Assembly: GCA_000004695.1 (NCBI GenBank)
Contig: CM000152.2
Coordinates: 5,696,001-5,760,000 of the forward strand
DNA: 64,000 nt
Reading direction: 5' to 3'
From: Dictyostelium discoideum
Taxonomy: Eukaryota
Program-made: the position numbers and the translations under genes
Shown here: positions 10,517-55,467 of the stretch, piece by piece
How the letters are laid out: each line of letters begins with the position of its first letter
Position numbering within the stretch: position 1 is the stretch's first letter
The notes under the pieces: model-generated
Databases searched by the model: none
What the model saw: the letters and a program-made list of their open reading frames with translations, nothing else
Told to the model about the DNA's origin: nothing

Positions 10517-10587
10517 TGCGTATGCCGGGAATCGAACCCGGTTCAACTGCTTGGAAGGCAGCTATCATACCACTAGACCACATACGC
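10517..10587 (-). tRNA. tRNA-Gly (anticodon UCC), copy 1
   Basis: Reverse complement is GCGTATGTGGTCTAGTGGTATGATAGCTGCCTTCCAAGCAGTTGAACCGGGTTCGATTCCCGGCATACGCA: 7-bp acceptor stem, D arm, anticodon stem GCTGC/GCAGT with loop CTTCCAA (T33, anticodon TCC, A37), T arm GGGTTCGATTCCC. Very close to the metazoan tRNA-Gly-TCC sequence as I recall it (from memory; not re-verified). Followed by an oligo(T) terminator on the coding strand. Confidence 0.9.
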
Positions 10588-10953: not shown

Positions 10954-11024
10954 TGCGTATGCCGGGAATCGAACCCGGTTCAACTGCTTGGAAGGCAGCT
11001 ATCATACCACTAGACCACATACGC
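10954..11024 (-). tRNA. tRNA-Gly (anticodon UCC), copy 2 (identical mature sequence to copy 1)
   Basis: Same 71-nt sequence as 10517..10587. Flanks are also duplicated (10479-10612 vs 10913-11046), i.e. a ~435-bp tandem duplication of the tRNA unit. Confidence 0.9.
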
Positions 11025-30441: not shown

Positions 30442-30473
30442 ATGTCAAATTACTTGAACGCAAACTCAACAGA

Positions 30474-30520
<47 letters not shown>

Positions 30521-30822
30521 TTAATAATAATTTTAATACAACAGATTTTAAAATTGTTGGCAATTTCAATACCCCACCAATTGGGAGCAATAACAATAAT
30601 AACAATAATAATAATAGCATATCAACTCAATCTCTTCAAACGATTAATGAATGTAATAGTGGAGGAGAACAGTCACCAAAAATTAAAACCAATAATAATT
30701 CATATAATACACCAGTTTCATCATCAACGTCCACAACTGGTACGAATACAACACCAATGAAGTCTACACCAATTCATAACTCTTTACAAAATATTTTTAA
30801 AAATGCAAATAGGTCAAATTTA

Positions 30823-30898
<76 letters not shown>

Positions 30899-30927
30899 GT
30901 GGTTGTGGGAGTGGTAGTTTAAATAGT

Positions 30928-30970
<43 letters not shown>

Positions 30971-31169
30971 GTAATAATAATAATAGTAATAGTAATAGTA
31001 ATAGTAATAATAATAATAATAGTAATAGTAATAATAATAATAATAATAGTAATAGTAATGCATACCCGTTAAAATATTATCAACATCCTCAGCAATCATG
31101 TTCAAATTTGGATTCTTTTGAAAATTTATCACCATTAAGACAATCATCAACTTTATTAAATTTTAGTTC

Positions 31170-31219
<50 letters not shown>

Positions 31220-32007
31220 GTAATAATAATAGTAGTAATAATAATAATAAGAATAATAGTAGTAAAAATAAAGTAGGAGGTGGAAATAATAAAAATAATG
31301 GTGGTGATGATAGCGCTCAATTTATTTCATCTGATAATAAATATAATACTGTTGGAAATGAAACTCATCATCATCATCATCATCAACTTCATAATCATCG
31401 TCATTCAAATGTTCAAGGTAGTTCATCACCAATTAAATCATCACCAAAATTAATATCTTCACAATCTCTTGGTAATATTTTTAGTCAAATCTCACCAAAT
31501 ATAGCTTTAACAACAAATATATCACCACATGGATCACCATTTTCCTCTTCATCATCTTCAAGAAAATCATCTTCATCTCCTTCTTTTTTAAATCAAAATA
31601 ATCAAAACAATCCAAATAATCAAAATAATCAAAATAATTCAACATCTCCACATGAAAAGTCATTTTTAAATAATTCAAATGATAGTTTTGATTATAATGA
31701 TAATTCAAAAAGATTAAGAAATAGATTAACTAGAAATACAGGGTATAGTAGTACAGGTAGCATTGGAAATAGTAGCAGTAGTAGTTTTTATAATAATAAT
31801 AACGAAAATAGTAATATATATTCAAAAATTAAACATACAAGAAGTAGTAGTGGCGGTAATAAACCATCACCAAAATATTTTCAAACTTCACAAGCAATAT
31901 ATACTCCACCATATCCACAACCATATCCACAACCACCTCAACTACCACCACCATCATCATCATCATCATTATCTAAAGAAAATGATAATGTCGACAACAA
32001 CAACACC

Positions 32008-32069
<62 letters not shown>

Positions 32070-33092
32070 ATTTTTTTCATCAAAAGGTACAATGAATTTA
32101 ATTCATATATCCCTATTATCAGTATTGGCATTTTATATTTTCTTGATGGTATCAAAAAAGTTTTTATTTAGAGTATTTCAATGGAATAATAATATTAATT
32201 CATTGTTTATTTTAATATTTTCATTTCATTTCATATTCTCATCGATTTTAATGTTTTTGTTGGTGGTATTGTTAAAAATGAAGAAATACTCACATTCAAT
32301 CTCTCAATCTGCACGTGAATCCTTAAGAAATTCAAGAGTGATACCATCATTATTAAATTTCTTTTTATCAGATTATATTTTTTTGGGTTTAGTTTTATCT
32401 GGTTTGGTTAATATCCTTCAAGTTAATCTTTTCTTTAATCCAAAAGATCCACTTTTAAATTTAGATTCAATTTCTAATGTAAGTTTTATAAAAAAACTTT
32501 TATTAAATCAAAATTATTAATAATTATTAATTTTTTTTTTTTTTTTATTTAGATATCAACAGCAATTGAATTTTTAGTTGTTGGAATTGTATTAAATTTT
32601 TCACATATTCCAAAAAAAATGTATAATAGTAGATATAGCGAATTTAGAGTTTCATCATCGATCTCACCATATTTTCAAGATGAATCCTATAATGTAAATA
32701 ATATAATAAATAACGATAATAAAAATAAAATTAACGATAAAAGTGATAATAGTAATAGTATCACTAATAATAATAATATCAATAATAATATTGATAATAA
32801 TAATAATAGTAGTAGTAATACTAAAATTAATAACGATTTAAATTTTGATAATAATATTAAAAATAACGATATAAATAATAATATTACAAATAATAATAAT
32901 AACAATAACAATAATAACAATAATAACAATAATACTAATAATAATAATAATAATAATAACAATAATAGTAACAATAATAATAATAATAATAATAATAATA
33001 GTAATAAAAATAATAATACTAATAGTAATAATAATAATAATAATAGTAGTAATAATAATAATACTAATAATAATAAAATTAACGATAATAAA

Positions 33093-33160
<68 letters not shown>

Positions 33161-34463
33161 AGAAGATGATGAAGAAGAAAAGAATGATTGGTCATATTCA
33201 TTTCAAATATTTTTTACAAGAATATTTTTATGTTTATCAATTACTTATACATTGATTGTATTAAGATTAAATTATGATCCATTGAATCAATTCTTACAAC
33301 AAAGTAGTTCATTTGGATCTGGAGCTAATGGTAATAGTGGTGGTGGTAATGTAAATACAATCATTTCACCAGTACAATTTCAAGCACCATTGGCAACTTT
33401 ATTACATTTCATTCAATTGGTATTGTTATTGGTAAATTATAATCGTTTTAGAACCAATAGATTCTTTTCATTAATATTATCAACAATTTTCATAGAAGTT
33501 TCATCTTGGGAGACATTTGGTTTGAATTCTCGTTTATTTGAATCATATATTTTCGAGGCATTATTAATTCGTAGATGGATTCGTGCATGTTCTGTTGGTT
33601 TCCCAATTGTTGGTATCATTTTGGATATCTATAGTGGTTGGATGAGTATAAATCAATCGATCAAATCAATCGATCAACAAAACATTATGATTGTCAATAG
33701 ATTTAATTACCTCTGTTCAAACGTTAAGAAACAAGAGGAATTAACACAATACAACTCTCAATTCTACATTGAATCAATGAATCAATTCAAACGTTTAGTT
33801 CAAAATACAGGTTCAATCATTAGTTTAATATATGATACCGATGTTCAACCAAATCAAGAGGCTTATCTAAGTAAATTCTCAAGTTCTTATGAACAATTAA
33901 GTAAACTAACCAAGGAGTGTTTATTCTACTCGGAAATTAAACAATTGAAACGTAATGATGTAGAGAATCTATCATTTGTAGTTTCAAATCTTTTAGAGGA
34001 TTTAATTTCAACACCATCAATTAGAACTCAATTCGAAGAGAAAGAAATCGATCTCTTCTATTTAATTGATAAAGATGTACCTCTCTCATTGGTTGGTGAT
34101 TCTCAAAAGATTAAACAAATTCTATTGAAACTAATAACCAATAGTATAAAGGCAACCTATGAAGGTGAAGTTTATATTAGAGTTTCCCTCTCAAGTAATT
34201 TAGGTGTTTTAAAACAACAACCAATTCATCATCATCGTCATCATCATCGTCATCATCACCATCACCATCACCATCATCATCATCATATCATTGATGATGA
34301 TGATTATGACGACGATAATGATGATGACAATAATACTGAAGATAGTAGTAGTTGTTGTAATATTGATGAATTATCTGATAAAATTAAAGATAATCAAGAT
34401 GAAAATTTAGAATTAAAAAAATCAAATAATGATAAAATTATTGAAAATAAAGAAAATCAAGAA

Positions 34464-34530
<67 letters not shown>

Positions 34531-37223
34531 GTAATAATAATACAAATATAAATATAAATACAAATAATAATAATGATAGTAATAATAATAATTGTATTAA
34601 TAATGATTTAAAAAATAATAATAATAATAGTAATAATAATGTAAATAATAATAATAATAATATTAATGATAGTAATAATAATAATAATAGTAATAATAAT
34701 AATATTAATAATAATATTAATAATAATATTAATAATAATAATAATATTAAAAAGAAAAAAAAGAAAAATGAATTTACAGTTTATTTTTCAGTAATTGATA
34801 GTGGTTCAGGTATTGATCCTTATAGTACAAATTTATTATTTCAACCATTTTCATTATCAAGTTATAATGTAAATTCAACCAATACAGATGGTGAATTTGG
34901 TTTAGGTTTAGCAATTTGTAAACAATTATCAAATTTAATGAACGGTGAAATTAAATATGAAACAGAAATGGAGAAGGGATCAGTTTTCGAGTTACAAGTT
35001 CCAATGAAATGTGATAGTATTAGCTCAATTACTTCCTCGATGAATAGTACTACTAATACCACCAATCATTATCCAAGAATTATGAATAATCAAAGTTCAA
35101 AGTTTTTTGCAAACTCTAAATGGGGCGAAGGCTTAAAGATATTGGTTATTGATGATAATCCAAACATTGGAAAAGTGATAGCAATGCATTTGGAACCATT
35201 TGGATTTAAAGTTTTCCAAAGAACCACCTTTCAATCGGCTATTTATTTCTTTAATGAACGTAATGGTGATTTCAATCTAATTCTTTTGGACCCATTGATT
35301 CCTTCATTGGTAATCGATGAGATTAAACAAATGAAACAAGATTCTTCCAATATCATAAAGAATCCACCTTTGGTAATAATGTGTACCGCTAAACTTAGAA
35401 AATCTTTAAATGTTGATAATGTTCATTACCTCTATAAACCAATTAAAAGAGAACAATTAACTGTACTCTCTCAATTATTACCAAATACTTCAACAATTAA
35501 TCCAATTTATTCAAATCAAAATTTAAATAATAGTGGTAGTAGTAATGGTGGTGGTGGTGGTGGTGGTGGTGGTGGTGGTGGTGGTGGTGGTGGTGGCAGT
35601 GGTAGTAGCAATATTGATTTCAATAAAACTAAACTTGGTGGTTCTAATATTTCAACTGGTATTGGTAATAGTGGTTTAATTAATAGTAATAATATTCCAA
35701 CTCCAGTTAATACACCTTCAAATATTATTCCAAATTTACTTTCTTGTCAATCATTATTAACAAGTTTAAATAATGCAAATATTCCTCAATTAACAAATGA
35801 TATTGGTATAACAAATAATAATATTAATAATAATAGTTTAATGTTTACAACACCAAATTCAACACTTAGTAATAATGGTATTACAGGTTTAGATAATAAT
35901 AGTAATAATGATACTGGTAGTATTGATAATAATAGTAATATTAGTACAAATATTGATAATAATAATGATTATTTTATTAGAAATAATGGTATTCCTCCTC
36001 AAAATGATATGAATACTTATAATAATTATGTTTTAAATCATCAACAAGGTGTTCTACCAAAATCATTATCAGTACCATCCACTCCATTATCATATAATAT
36101 GTTACCAACAAATCTAAACATTAATGCAAAGAGATCTTCATTACAACCATTAAATGAAAATTCAGTTTTACCAACAAATTTAACACCTCCAATTTTATCT
36201 GCTTCACCTCAATCTTTACTTCCAATGGGTAATGATATTAATTCAATATTACCAAATACCCAACAATCACAAATAGATTTACAATCACAAATCGAATTAC
36301 AACCACTTTTACAATCAACTATAATTAGAAATGATCGTGGTGGTGATATTTTACCTGATTCAACTTTAGAAGGTCAAATAACAAATTTAAGTGGTAATAA
36401 TTCAACCATATCAATAAATCCACCATTACCAGAAACTAATAACAACACAACAACAACGACAACAACAACACAACCAAAGAAATCACCGATATTAACATCT
36501 TCAAATGGTAGTGATAAGAGTGAAGGTTCGACTGGTAGTAATAGATCAAAATCTAGAATTTCCTTTTTAAATTCAAGTAATAGTGGTTTATTAAAAAATA
36601 ATCTTGGTGAAGATATTTATTGTAAAGGTGATCAATCTGAAGGTATTCCAATACCAAAATCTGAAAGAACTTCTGATTCTTCATCTTCATCTTCTTCCTC
36701 TGATTCACATGGCCAAGATGATCATTCATATAGATTGGAAGATTTTTCAATTTCTTCACCATCTTCTCAATCACCATTACTAGATTTAAGTGGTACAAGT
36801 GGTACAAGTGGTACTACAAATCTTGCAAATAGTGGTATTAATAGTGGTAGTGGTAGTGGTGGTGGTGATATTATTAATCAAAATCAATTAATAACATCAA
36901 ATCAATTATTTCAACAACAACTACAACAGCAACAACAACCACAACAACAACAACCACCAGGAACTCCAACAATTTCACCATCATCATCATTCCCATTATT
37001 ACCAATACCAAGAGATATCATTAATAGCAGTGGTGCAAGTAGTGGTATTAAAGTTAAATCGTCAACTTCAATACCAGATTATGTACAAGTTTCACCAAGA
37101 AGATTTAGTGGTAGTAGTACAGGAAGTGGTAGTAGTGTTGCATCACCTCAATTACTTTCAACTTCAAATCAATTAAATAATAATATTAATAATCTTAACC
37201 TTAATAGTAATAATAATAACAAC

Positions 37224-37255
<32 letters not shown>

Positions 37256-37682
37256 AAATAATGATAATAATAATAATAATGATAATAATTATAATGTTAA
37301 TATTTTATTAGTTGAAGATAATTTAGTAAATGCAAAGATTGCAATGACAGTATTAAGAAAACATAATTTTAGAGTTGAACTTTCAAAGAATGGTCAACTT
37401 GCGATGGAAAGAATTAAACAAAGTCACTCATCATTCGATTTGATTTTAATGGATATTCATATGCCTGTAATGGATGGTATCACTTGTTCAAAGTTAACAC
37501 GTAAATTTGAAACTGAACATGGTCTTAAACATTTACCAATTATCGCTCTCACTGCTGATGCAACCACTGGTCATAAAAATCTTTGTCTTGAAGCTGGTTG
37601 TAATGAATTTATGTCAAAACCTTTAGATTATGCTTTATTAATTAGTTTATTAAAGAAATTAGTTTTTAATAAAGATCAATAA
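30442..37682 (+). CDS. Membrane-anchored hybrid histidine kinase-like protein with two receiver domains, join(30442..32478,32553..37682), ~2388 aa; the H-box histidine appears replaced by Asn
   Basis: Exon 1 is a poly-Asn-rich N-terminus plus 4-5 TM helices, ending AAT|GTAAGT; exon 2 starts after TTTATTTAG, in frame. HATPase_c motifs: N-box LKLITNSIKAT, G1 VIDSGSGID, F FQPFS, G2 GEFGLGLAICKQL. Dimerization/phosphotransfer region aligns (PNQEAYL vs PEQREYL; FYSEIKQL vs DFSKIEAG) but the H-box reads ESMNQFKRLV instead of xMSHELRTPL. REC1 is ILVIDDNPNIG...LILLD...TAK...YKP; REC2 is ILLVEDN...LILMDIHMPVMDG...ALTAD...SKP. A poly-His insert lies in the ATP-binding domain. Confidence 0.8.
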
Positions 37683-49444: not shown

Positions 49445-53854
<4,410 letters not shown>

Positions 53855-55385: not shown

Positions 55386-55467
55386 GACATCGTAGCGAAG
55401 TGGTCTAACGCGTTTGACTTGAAATCAAATCTCCTAGGAGGCGCAGGTTCGAACCCTGCCGATGTCG
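55386..55467 (+). tRNA. tRNA-Ser (anticodon UGA), class II with long variable arm
   Basis: GACATCG TA GCGAAGTGGTCTAACGCG TTTGA CTTGAAA TCAAA TCTCCTAGGAGGCG CAGG TTCGAAC CCTG CCGATGTCG: acceptor stem GACATCG/CGATGTC, anticodon stem TTTGA/TCAAA, loop CTTGAAA (anticodon TGA), 14-nt variable arm, canonical T arm. Confidence 0.85.

Follow-up and report, generated by a model that had tools for sequence, protein, structure and literature searches.

The locus and its gene

We describe here a gene in a stretch of 64,000 nucleotides (nt) of Dictyostelium discoideum DNA (contig CM000152.2), called the window below, in which all coordinates are positions. The gene lies on the + strand and almost certainly is dhkM. 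Its product, DhkM, is laid out as a membrane-anchored hybrid histidine kinase (HK), in which asparagine stands in place of the phosphoacceptor histidine and other residues of the H-box are changed as well, and the same class of replacement is found in its orthologs.

Two long open reading frames (ORFs) on the + strand, 30442..32520 and 32619..37682, are joined through an intron of 74 nt to give a single protein of 2388 amino acids (aa). This intron, 32479..32552, is the only GT..AG pair with a GTAAGT donor that keeps both ORFs in frame; its acceptor reads TTTAG. The reconstruction by ORFs and splice sites returns the gene model of an earlier note on this stretch of DNA (2388 aa, 30442..37682). 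From its low-complexity N-terminus, the protein runs through two groups of membrane helices, a helical region and a split HATPase_c domain to a first receiver (REC1), a linker rich in Ser, Asn and Gln, and a second receiver (REC2). The features discussed below, in the order in which they lie in the gene, are as follows.

30442..32478, + strand: exon 1, aa 1-679, with the low-complexity N-terminus and the first transmembrane group (ORF and splice reconstruction, hydropathy scan)
32098 onward, + strand: first transmembrane helix group, about aa 553-698 (hydropathy scan)
32479..32552, + strand: intron of 74 nt, GTAAGT...TTTAG
32553..37682, + strand: exon 2, aa 680-2388 and the stop codon
33207..33650, + strand: second membrane helix group, aa 898-1045, directly upstream of the dimerisation and phosphotransfer (DHp) region (hydropathy scan; the ortholog matches start here)
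33693..33941, + strand: DHp-like helical hairpin, aa 1060-1106, loop DVQPN, aa 1112-1142 (AlphaFold2, hhalign)
33771..33800, + strand: degenerate H-box ESMNQFKRLV, aa 1086-1095 (sequence, profile and PDB alignments)
33942..34226, + strand: N-terminal half of the catalytic ATP-binding (CA) domain, with N-box Asn1209 (34140..34142) and Lys1212 (Pfam HATPase_c; alignment A3, described below; AlphaFold2 confidence, pLDDT, >90)
34227..34754, + strand: low-complexity insertion of 176 aa, with His/Arg, Asp-rich and poly-Asn tracts (TRF, A3, pLDDT <50)
34755..35012, + strand: C-terminal half of the CA domain, with G1 D1428-S-G-S-G, F-box Phe1442 and the G2 core G1462-L-G-L (HATPase_c)
35133..35480, + strand: receiver 1 (REC1), aa 1540-1655 (Response_reg 30.3 bits, PhoB alignment, ortholog alignment)
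37296..37664, + strand: receiver 2 (REC2), aa 2261-2383 (Response_reg 76 bits, ortholog alignment)

Loss of the phosphoacceptor histidine

Asn1089, encoded by the codon AAT at 33780..33782, occupies the His position of the H-box in sequence, profile-profile and PDB alignments, and with it Gln1090 stands for Glu, Lys1092 for Arg, Arg1093 for Thr/Asn and Leu1094 for Pro. When aa 1030-1236 were compared with all PDB chains by phmmer, aa 1054-1226 matched GacS (7z8n_A, E=1e-16) in an alignment that has no gaps over H-box, X-box and N-box and in which Asn1089, within ynsqfyiesmnqfkrlvqntg, sits under the His of MSHEIRTPL. A profile of five family members (A1), aligned by hhalign with one of 14 canonical kinase transmitters (A2), places Asn at the His column in the same register (probability 99.8%, E=5.6e-28), and a 17-sequence MAFFT alignment (A3) also puts Asn1089 at the His position. 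We further used aa 1030-1236 as the query of a local phmmer run on the 150 best hits from a search over 1.84 billion proteins. It gave 159 domain alignments, whose H-box column holds His in 141, a one-residue slip of a canonical MSHE in 14 and Asn or Ser in the remaining four, which are exactly the four orthologs and paralogs of DhkM. A misregister of one residue can be rejected for DhkM itself: the canonical hits slip by one in 14 cases, but DhkM has no His nearby.

No His occurs between aa 965 and 1237, which includes the whole DHp, and the motif H[ED]x[RK][TNS]P is found in none of the six frames of the 64-kb window, so that a hidden exon carrying the H-box is rejected as well. The Pfam scan agrees: HisKA is not detected in the 2388-aa protein even at E<=10, while HATPase_c (E=4e-20) and two Response_reg domains are found. 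The earlier note had read the phosphoacceptor as Asn and had seen no His within 15 residues on either side. The first reading is confirmed by phmmer against GacS, hhalign and MAFFT, and the second extends well beyond that distance. That note had also named two findings that would overturn it, a profile alignment placing a His at the site and an additional exon with a canonical H-box; no alignment (phmmer against the PDB, hhalign) and no frame of the window gave either. Its suggestion that the protein might be trans-phosphorylated fails for the DHp, where this is impossible because the domain contains no His. Other candidate acceptors fare no better, since the DHp has none and the His conserved in the family in the full-length alignment are confined to two membrane helices and the receivers; a His seven residues past the site in one ortholog and a loop His in Acytostelium were rejected because they are not conserved.

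In the HisKA motif H-E/D-x-x-T/N, only the kinase reaction depends on the acidic residue, and only the phosphatase reaction on the Thr/Asn (PMC3510030, PMC7005713), and in CpxA, Glu249 is the general base and Arg251 touches the gamma-phosphate, with Asn360 of the N-box and Thr417 of G2 binding ATP (PMC3904827). At His+1, where a kinase requires an acidic residue, all five family members have Gln (Gln1090 in DhkM), and at His+4, where a HisKA phosphatase requires Thr or Asn, DhkM has Arg1093 and the other family members Lys. The family motif is therefore [N/S]-Q-[F/I]-K-[R/K], in which nucleophile, general base and canonical phosphatase residue are all missing. By this reading of the residues, DhkM would neither start a relay by autophosphorylation nor carry out textbook DHp phosphatase chemistry. 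The inability to autophosphorylate at the canonical site, as claimed in the earlier note, is thus predicted from the absence of the His, a loss that the four orthologs and paralogs with a DHp share.

Conservation of the loss among orthologs

The closest relative of the protein is D. purpureum F0ZT77 (DICPUDRAFT_155154), which is annotated 'Histidine kinase' and is 68% identical. Orthologs were recognised in an exhaustive library search by matching the upstream membrane region too. A word-indexed search (aa 880-1236, E<=1e-3) gave no match, although the collection contains the D. purpureum ortholog, which the exhaustive search recovered. Among the further family members, P0002 (EukProt gene5330-6648_t) is 53% identical to DhkM, and two proteins of Acytostelium subglobosum, P0003 and P0004, are 36% and 34% identical; P0006 (Synstelium polycarpum) is unusable for the H-box, since its gene model skips the DHp. 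The H-boxes read ESMNQFKKL in the D. purpureum protein (P0001), NTISQFKKI in P0002, STLSQFKKT in P0003 and NTINQIKKT in P0004. The former His site is thus Asn or Ser in every family member with a DHp and never His. All members of the family share Gln at His+1 and Lys at His+3; at His+4 they have Arg or Lys, and none keeps the conserved Pro at His+5. Acytostelium has two DhkM-like paralogs, both of which lack the His. In P0002, a His occurs seven residues, or two helical turns, past the former acceptor site (SQFKKIVH), as in no other family member.

The comparison with orthologs to see whether the His is missing there too, proposed in the earlier note, thus finds it missing in D. purpureum, P0002 and both Acytostelium proteins. 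Pfam HisKA is likewise undetected in the orthologs scanned (P0001, P0002 and P0004). The surrounding segment is well preserved: from DHp to N-box, the mean column identity is 64%, with 41 invariant columns that include F14, Q21, K23, D38, DVQ and Q45. Judged from these alignments, the loss of the His appears to be old and under selection. A DHp-CA unit without His that is conserved in the orthologs, together with an intact reading frame, places DhkM among the pseudo-histidine kinases.

It could be argued that the missing His is an artefact, caused by faulty sequencing, by a mutation of this strain, by decay of a pseudogene or by an alignment that hides it. AAT is indeed one transversion away from the His codon CAT, and Pfam detects no HisKA. 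On the other hand, the ORF is intact across 2388 codons, the same substitution class is present in four independent orthologous sequences from at least three species, five further H-box positions are altered in concert, the alignments are ungapped and highly significant, and the flanking DHp, CA and REC2 are strongly conserved. We thus regard an artefact as hardly credible.

ATP-binding domain and predicted fold

The CA domain of DhkM has retained one set of motifs and lost another. Its N-box Asn1209, Lys1212, G1 (D1428-S-G-S-G), F-box Phe1442 and GLGL core (G1462-L-G-L) are invariant with the canonical kinases in A3. The motifs for Mg-ATP (N-box Asn, G1 DxGxG and the GLGL core of G2) are present and binding is predicted, with the Gly-Thr of G2 changed. 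The ATP-lid Arg and the F-box Gln are absent. The lid motif R..GG.GLGL, present in 141 of the 156 nearest canonical domains, and the F-box motif F..F.Q, present in 150 of the 156, are both missing from the aligned CA of DhkM and of those orthologs that have one; a match of the whole P0003 protein to F..F.Q as a regular expression has no counterpart in its aligned F-box (FEPYVL). The lid of DhkM reads STNTDGEF, the first Gly-Thr of G2 being replaced by Glu-Phe, and it is acidic across the family (TDGEF, TEGEF, LEGDL, EEFRV). The earlier description of an intact ATP-binding domain thus holds for N-box Asn, G1, Phe1442 and GLGL and fails for the lid Arg, the F-box Gln and the Gly-Thr of G2, as A3 and the motif counts show. 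P0003, which is partial, appears more degenerate, with N-box VNTGLKTT and G2 GIGLDM.

These retained motifs could be taken to suggest that DhkM is a protein kinase with an acceptor other than His, whose CA phosphorylates Ser/Thr on itself or on another protein: the motifs were kept long after the His was lost, two orthologs have Ser at the former His site, and His-less HK-like proteins of eukaryotes are known that have acquired Ser/Thr kinase activity (PMC6324907). Yet the residue at the site is Asn, which is not phosphorylatable, in D. discoideum, D. purpureum and one Acytostelium paralog, the general base at His+1 and the phosphate-contacting lid residues are lost, and no such activity is known for DhkM. 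We consider this explanation very unlikely.

An AlphaFold2 model built from A3 predicts a hairpin of aa 1060-1106 and 1112-1142, with Asn1089 within helix 1. The CA domain is modelled at pLDDT >90, its lid is of low confidence and the 176-aa insertion is disordered. The best Foldseek matches to the model are GacS, RetS, HK853 and the ETR1 catalytic domain, the first three at probability 1.00. As judged from AlphaFold2, Foldseek and hhalign (99.8%), both the DHp hairpin and the HATPase_c alpha/beta sandwich are present, and the transmitter fold is, in this model, retained.

These matches bear on the possibility that DhkM is an anti-kinase like RetS, whose His-less DHp would heteromerise with the DHp of another Dhk and block or redirect its autophosphorylation, or whose CA would phosphorylate the partner's His, with the receivers siphoning phosphate from the partner. 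The RetS kinase region is the best PDB match in sequence and structure after GacS, and RetS, in which a sensor, an HK region and two receivers likewise follow one another, acts by DHp-DHp binding and siphoning through its C-terminal receiver (PMC8498467). The surface of the DhkM DHp is well conserved (64% mean column identity), and the ATP-binding motifs that a trans-acting CA would need are retained. Giusti 2010 reportedly describes dominant-negative-like alleles of dhkM. The GacS and RetS matches, however, reflect general similarity among hybrid-kinase transmitters, at 12-16% identity in Foldseek, and not orthology. In RetS, the His is still there and ATP binding has been lost, the reverse of what DhkM shows (PMC8498467), no partner kinase is known, and the lid Arg and G2 Thr that contact the ATP phosphates are lost, which argues against efficient catalysis. 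On balance, a RetS-like mode of action seems unlikely, although it is better placed than kinase activity on a non-His acceptor.

The insertion that splits the CA domain contains a tract of 20 His/Arg residues (aa 1238-1257, 34227..34286), which the earlier note had singled out as unusual. The tract does lie within the ATP-binding domain, but TRF and A3 show a non-conserved triplet repeat and not a functional insertion. It is an imperfect (CAT)n repeat, the first of the back-to-back arrays (CAT)n 34226-34291, (GAT)n 34292-34327 and (AATAAT)n 34464-34750. In A3, the loop between N-box and G1 carries an unrelated acidic insert in D. purpureum and a few residues in the other orthologs, which agrees with a published comparison of the two Dictyostelium genomes, where homopolymer tracts do not keep their positions (PMC3188802). 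The His/Arg tract is a species-specific repeat expansion in a tolerant loop and not a functional element. The poly-His tract was also rejected as a phosphoacceptor, the (CAT)n repeat being absent from all orthologs. Repeats seem to expand readily in this loop, where they are tolerated, and the orthologs carry unrelated inserts of very different length there.

Receiver domains

Both receivers have the full set of phospho-chemistry residues, consisting of an acidic pair, a phospho-Asp, a Thr/Ser and a Lys. In REC1, a divergent domain with a Response_reg score of 30.3 bits against a cutoff of 30.2, these are D1546/D1547, D1592, T1624 and K1641 (in YLYKPI). In the alignment with the PhoB receiver, LILLD falls on the LILLD of PhoB that contains its phospho-Asp, VIDDN on VVEDE and MCTA on MLTA. 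REC2 is canonical (76 bits), with E2267/D2268, D2313, T2346 and K2368, and is near-identical among D. discoideum, D. purpureum, Acytostelium, Synstelium and P0002, which makes it the most conserved module of the protein. The acidic pocket, phospho-Asp, Thr and Lys that the earlier note had assigned to each receiver are thus all found in the Pfam, PhoB and ortholog alignments. P0004 lacks the middle of REC1, which is either a real deletion or an error of the gene model.

The state of the receivers bears directly on whether the DHp serves only to dimerise the membrane or receptor part, with phosphotransfer through CA, REC1 and REC2 being irrelevant, as in ACR (AcrA). There, dimerisation requires a His-less HisKA subdomain, mutations of the ATP-binding site and the receiver Asp matter little (PMC3009899), and the degenerate domain is kept in D. 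purpureum (PMC3188802). DhkM, however, has no other output domain for dimerisation to serve. REC2 is its most conserved part, with every phospho-chemistry residue kept in all orthologs, G1, N-box and GLGL are invariant, and rescue by 8Br-cAMP ties DhkM to the RegA relay (PMC4686194). A pure scaffold is thus improbable.

Probable identity as DhkM and its biological setting

That the gene is dhkM is almost certain from the AT-rich amoebozoan context, the similarity to F0ZT77, one-to-one orthology and the length of 2388 aa, which we take to be that of DhkM. The window is AT-rich, with GC of 14-31% per 2 kb, and the neighbouring genes encode an MBTPS1-like subtilase, a bromodomain protein, Ada3, AP-5 beta and an HMG/PHD protein. 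Two adjacent + strand ORFs, 50207..51523 and 51728..53806, match consecutive positions of the AP5B1 profile and probably belong to a single gene interrupted by an intron. The window also holds two tandem tRNA-Gly(UCC) genes on the - strand (10517..10587 and 10954..11024, about 440 bp apart) and one tRNA-Ser(UGA) gene on the + strand (55386..55467).

The histidine kinases of D. discoideum and D. purpureum stand in one-to-one orthology (PMC3188802), and DhkM has been treated as a receptor histidine kinase among the 14-15 of Dictyostelium (PMC10295651, PMC3188802, PMC3783435). In the literature surveyed, the primary DhkM paper aside, only for AcrA is the kinase domain described as non-functional (PMC3188802, PMC3009899). 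DhkM is required for vacuolar (autophagic) cell death induced by DIF-1 (PMC4325836), and 8Br-cAMP, an activator of PKA, restores the death of dhkM- cells, which has been interpreted as inhibition of RegA by DhkM in the role of a phosphatase (PMC4686194). A further proposal makes DhkM a candidate DIF-1 receptor (PMC10295651). For this proposal, the membrane region upstream of the DHp (aa 898-1045) is relevant: it matches no Pfam family, though it is conserved among dictyostelid orthologs, and may be a lineage-specific ligand-binding module. The conserved membrane/sensor region (33207..33650 and 32098..32609) holds two conserved intramembrane His, H555 and H596.

A proposed mechanism

We propose that DhkM is a conserved pseudo-histidine kinase that acts as a receiver-mediated phosphate sink, and we give this reading a probability of about 0.6; it may also partner other kinases in the manner of RetS. 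Its directly supported part consists of the loss of catalytic residues, the conservation of that loss, the retained fold and the retained receiver residues. In such a protein, the DHp bundle would dimerise the protein and transmit the signal. Nucleotide is probably still bound by the CA domain, in a regulatory or structural capacity; in HK853 and EnvZ, the ADP-bound CA stimulates dephosphorylation (PMC7005713). The output would lie in the receivers. Dictyostelium hybrid kinases feed or drain the relay from RdeA (HPt) to RegA (PMC5055082), and REC2, possibly also REC1, would take the phosphoryl group from RdeA by reverse transfer and then hydrolyse it. Draining of the RdeA-RegA relay would lower the phosphodiesterase activity of RegA and raise cAMP and PKA activity, which fits the rescue of dhkM- cells by 8Br-cAMP. 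We infer that nucleotide is bound, that RdeA and RegA are the partners and that phosphate flows in the direction of a sink. A His-less hybrid, unable to initiate a phosphorelay, could only drain one. The earlier note had offered a phospho-sink or a phosphatase acting through the receivers. We retain the sink, and any phosphatase role would have to be exerted by the receivers, because the DHp has lost the Thr/Asn at His+4 of textbook phosphatase chemistry, along with the Glu at His+1.

A number of points weigh against this proposal. First of all, the N-box, G1 and GLGL have been kept over the history of the family, which suggests an ATP-dependent activity that a pure sink would not need. Second, the invariant Gln together with Asn/Ser could form a non-canonical water-positioning phosphatase site, in which case the DHp would be catalytic. 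Third, the ortholog sample is small, at five sequences with a DHp. Fourth, the exact 2388-aa sequence is absent from the protein collection searched and the name DhkM thus comes from no database match, but from the length of 2388 aa and one-to-one orthology with D. purpureum. Finally, the published inference of a phosphatase is itself indirect, being drawn from the rescue by a cAMP analogue.

There is a wider possibility, which we put forward tentatively and hold to be less probable than the plain receiver-mediated sink. The remodelled DHp site, with its Asn/Ser and invariant Gln, and a nucleotide-gated CA might form a non-canonical phosphatase or sink for RdeA-RegA, or DhkM might heteromerise with other Dhk kinases as RetS does with GacS, or both, which would make DhkM the founding case of a dedicated anti-kinase in eukaryotes. 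If this were true, the trigger of DIF-1-dependent stalk-cell death would be the draining of a phosphorelay instead of a kinase signal, and what is seen as a candidate 'DIF-1 receptor kinase' would be no kinase at all. The discoverers of DhkM reportedly asked which moieties it phosphorylates; the question now shifts to what it dephosphorylates or binds. The lost residues offer a structural reason for the rescue by a cAMP analogue that had suggested a phosphatase-like action, and DhkM would be a natural eukaryotic counterpart of the bacterial pseudo-kinases RetS and DivL. There is also a lesson for annotation, in that the family-level name 'histidine kinase' may mask a conserved catalytic loss.

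Comparison with known systems

Pseudo-histidine kinases are already known, with several precedents that include one in D. discoideum, and DhkM is a conserved addition to them. The nearest case by organism is ACR/AcrA, which is likewise a multi-pass membrane protein of D. discoideum with a His-less HisKA-like subdomain, HATPase_c and two receivers (PMC3009899, PMC3188802). In ACR, however, dimerisation serves a cyclase output and the receiver Asp is dispensable, whereas DhkM has no cyclase and its REC2 is its most conserved module.

In module order, the match is to RetS of Pseudomonas aeruginosa, which also consists of a sensor, an HK region and two receivers. RetS is not itself a signalling kinase and acts through its DHp and through siphoning by its C-terminal receiver (PMC8498467). 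It differs from DhkM in the pattern of loss, since RetS keeps His424 and has lost ATP binding and DhkM shows the reverse. The similarity between the two is at the level of the family (about 13% identity, Foldseek), and their sensor domains are unrelated.

Natural replacement of the acceptor His is shared with DivL of Caulobacter, whose DHp-CA has been repurposed for regulation (PMC4211667, PMC5361649). DivL, on the other hand, is bacterial and cytoplasmic, carries PAS domains and no receivers, and senses a phosphorylated response regulator. The very exchange of His for Asn at the acceptor has been made in the laboratory in NRII (NtrB), whose H139N mutant acts only as a phosphatase (bioRxiv 10.1101/122606). 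This mutant keeps the rest of the H-E/D-x-x-T/N motif, however, whereas DhkM has also lost the phosphatase Thr/Asn (PMC3510030).

Finally, ethylene receptors of the ERS2 type, CSK and phytochromes are, like DhkM, eukaryotic descendants of histidine kinases that lack the conserved His and have been rewired (PMC6324907). As a rule, these His-less HK-like proteins of plants have neither functional receivers nor response-regulator partners, and they have been credited with Ser/Thr kinase activity. DhkM differs from them in having kept two receivers with complete phospho-Asp pockets.

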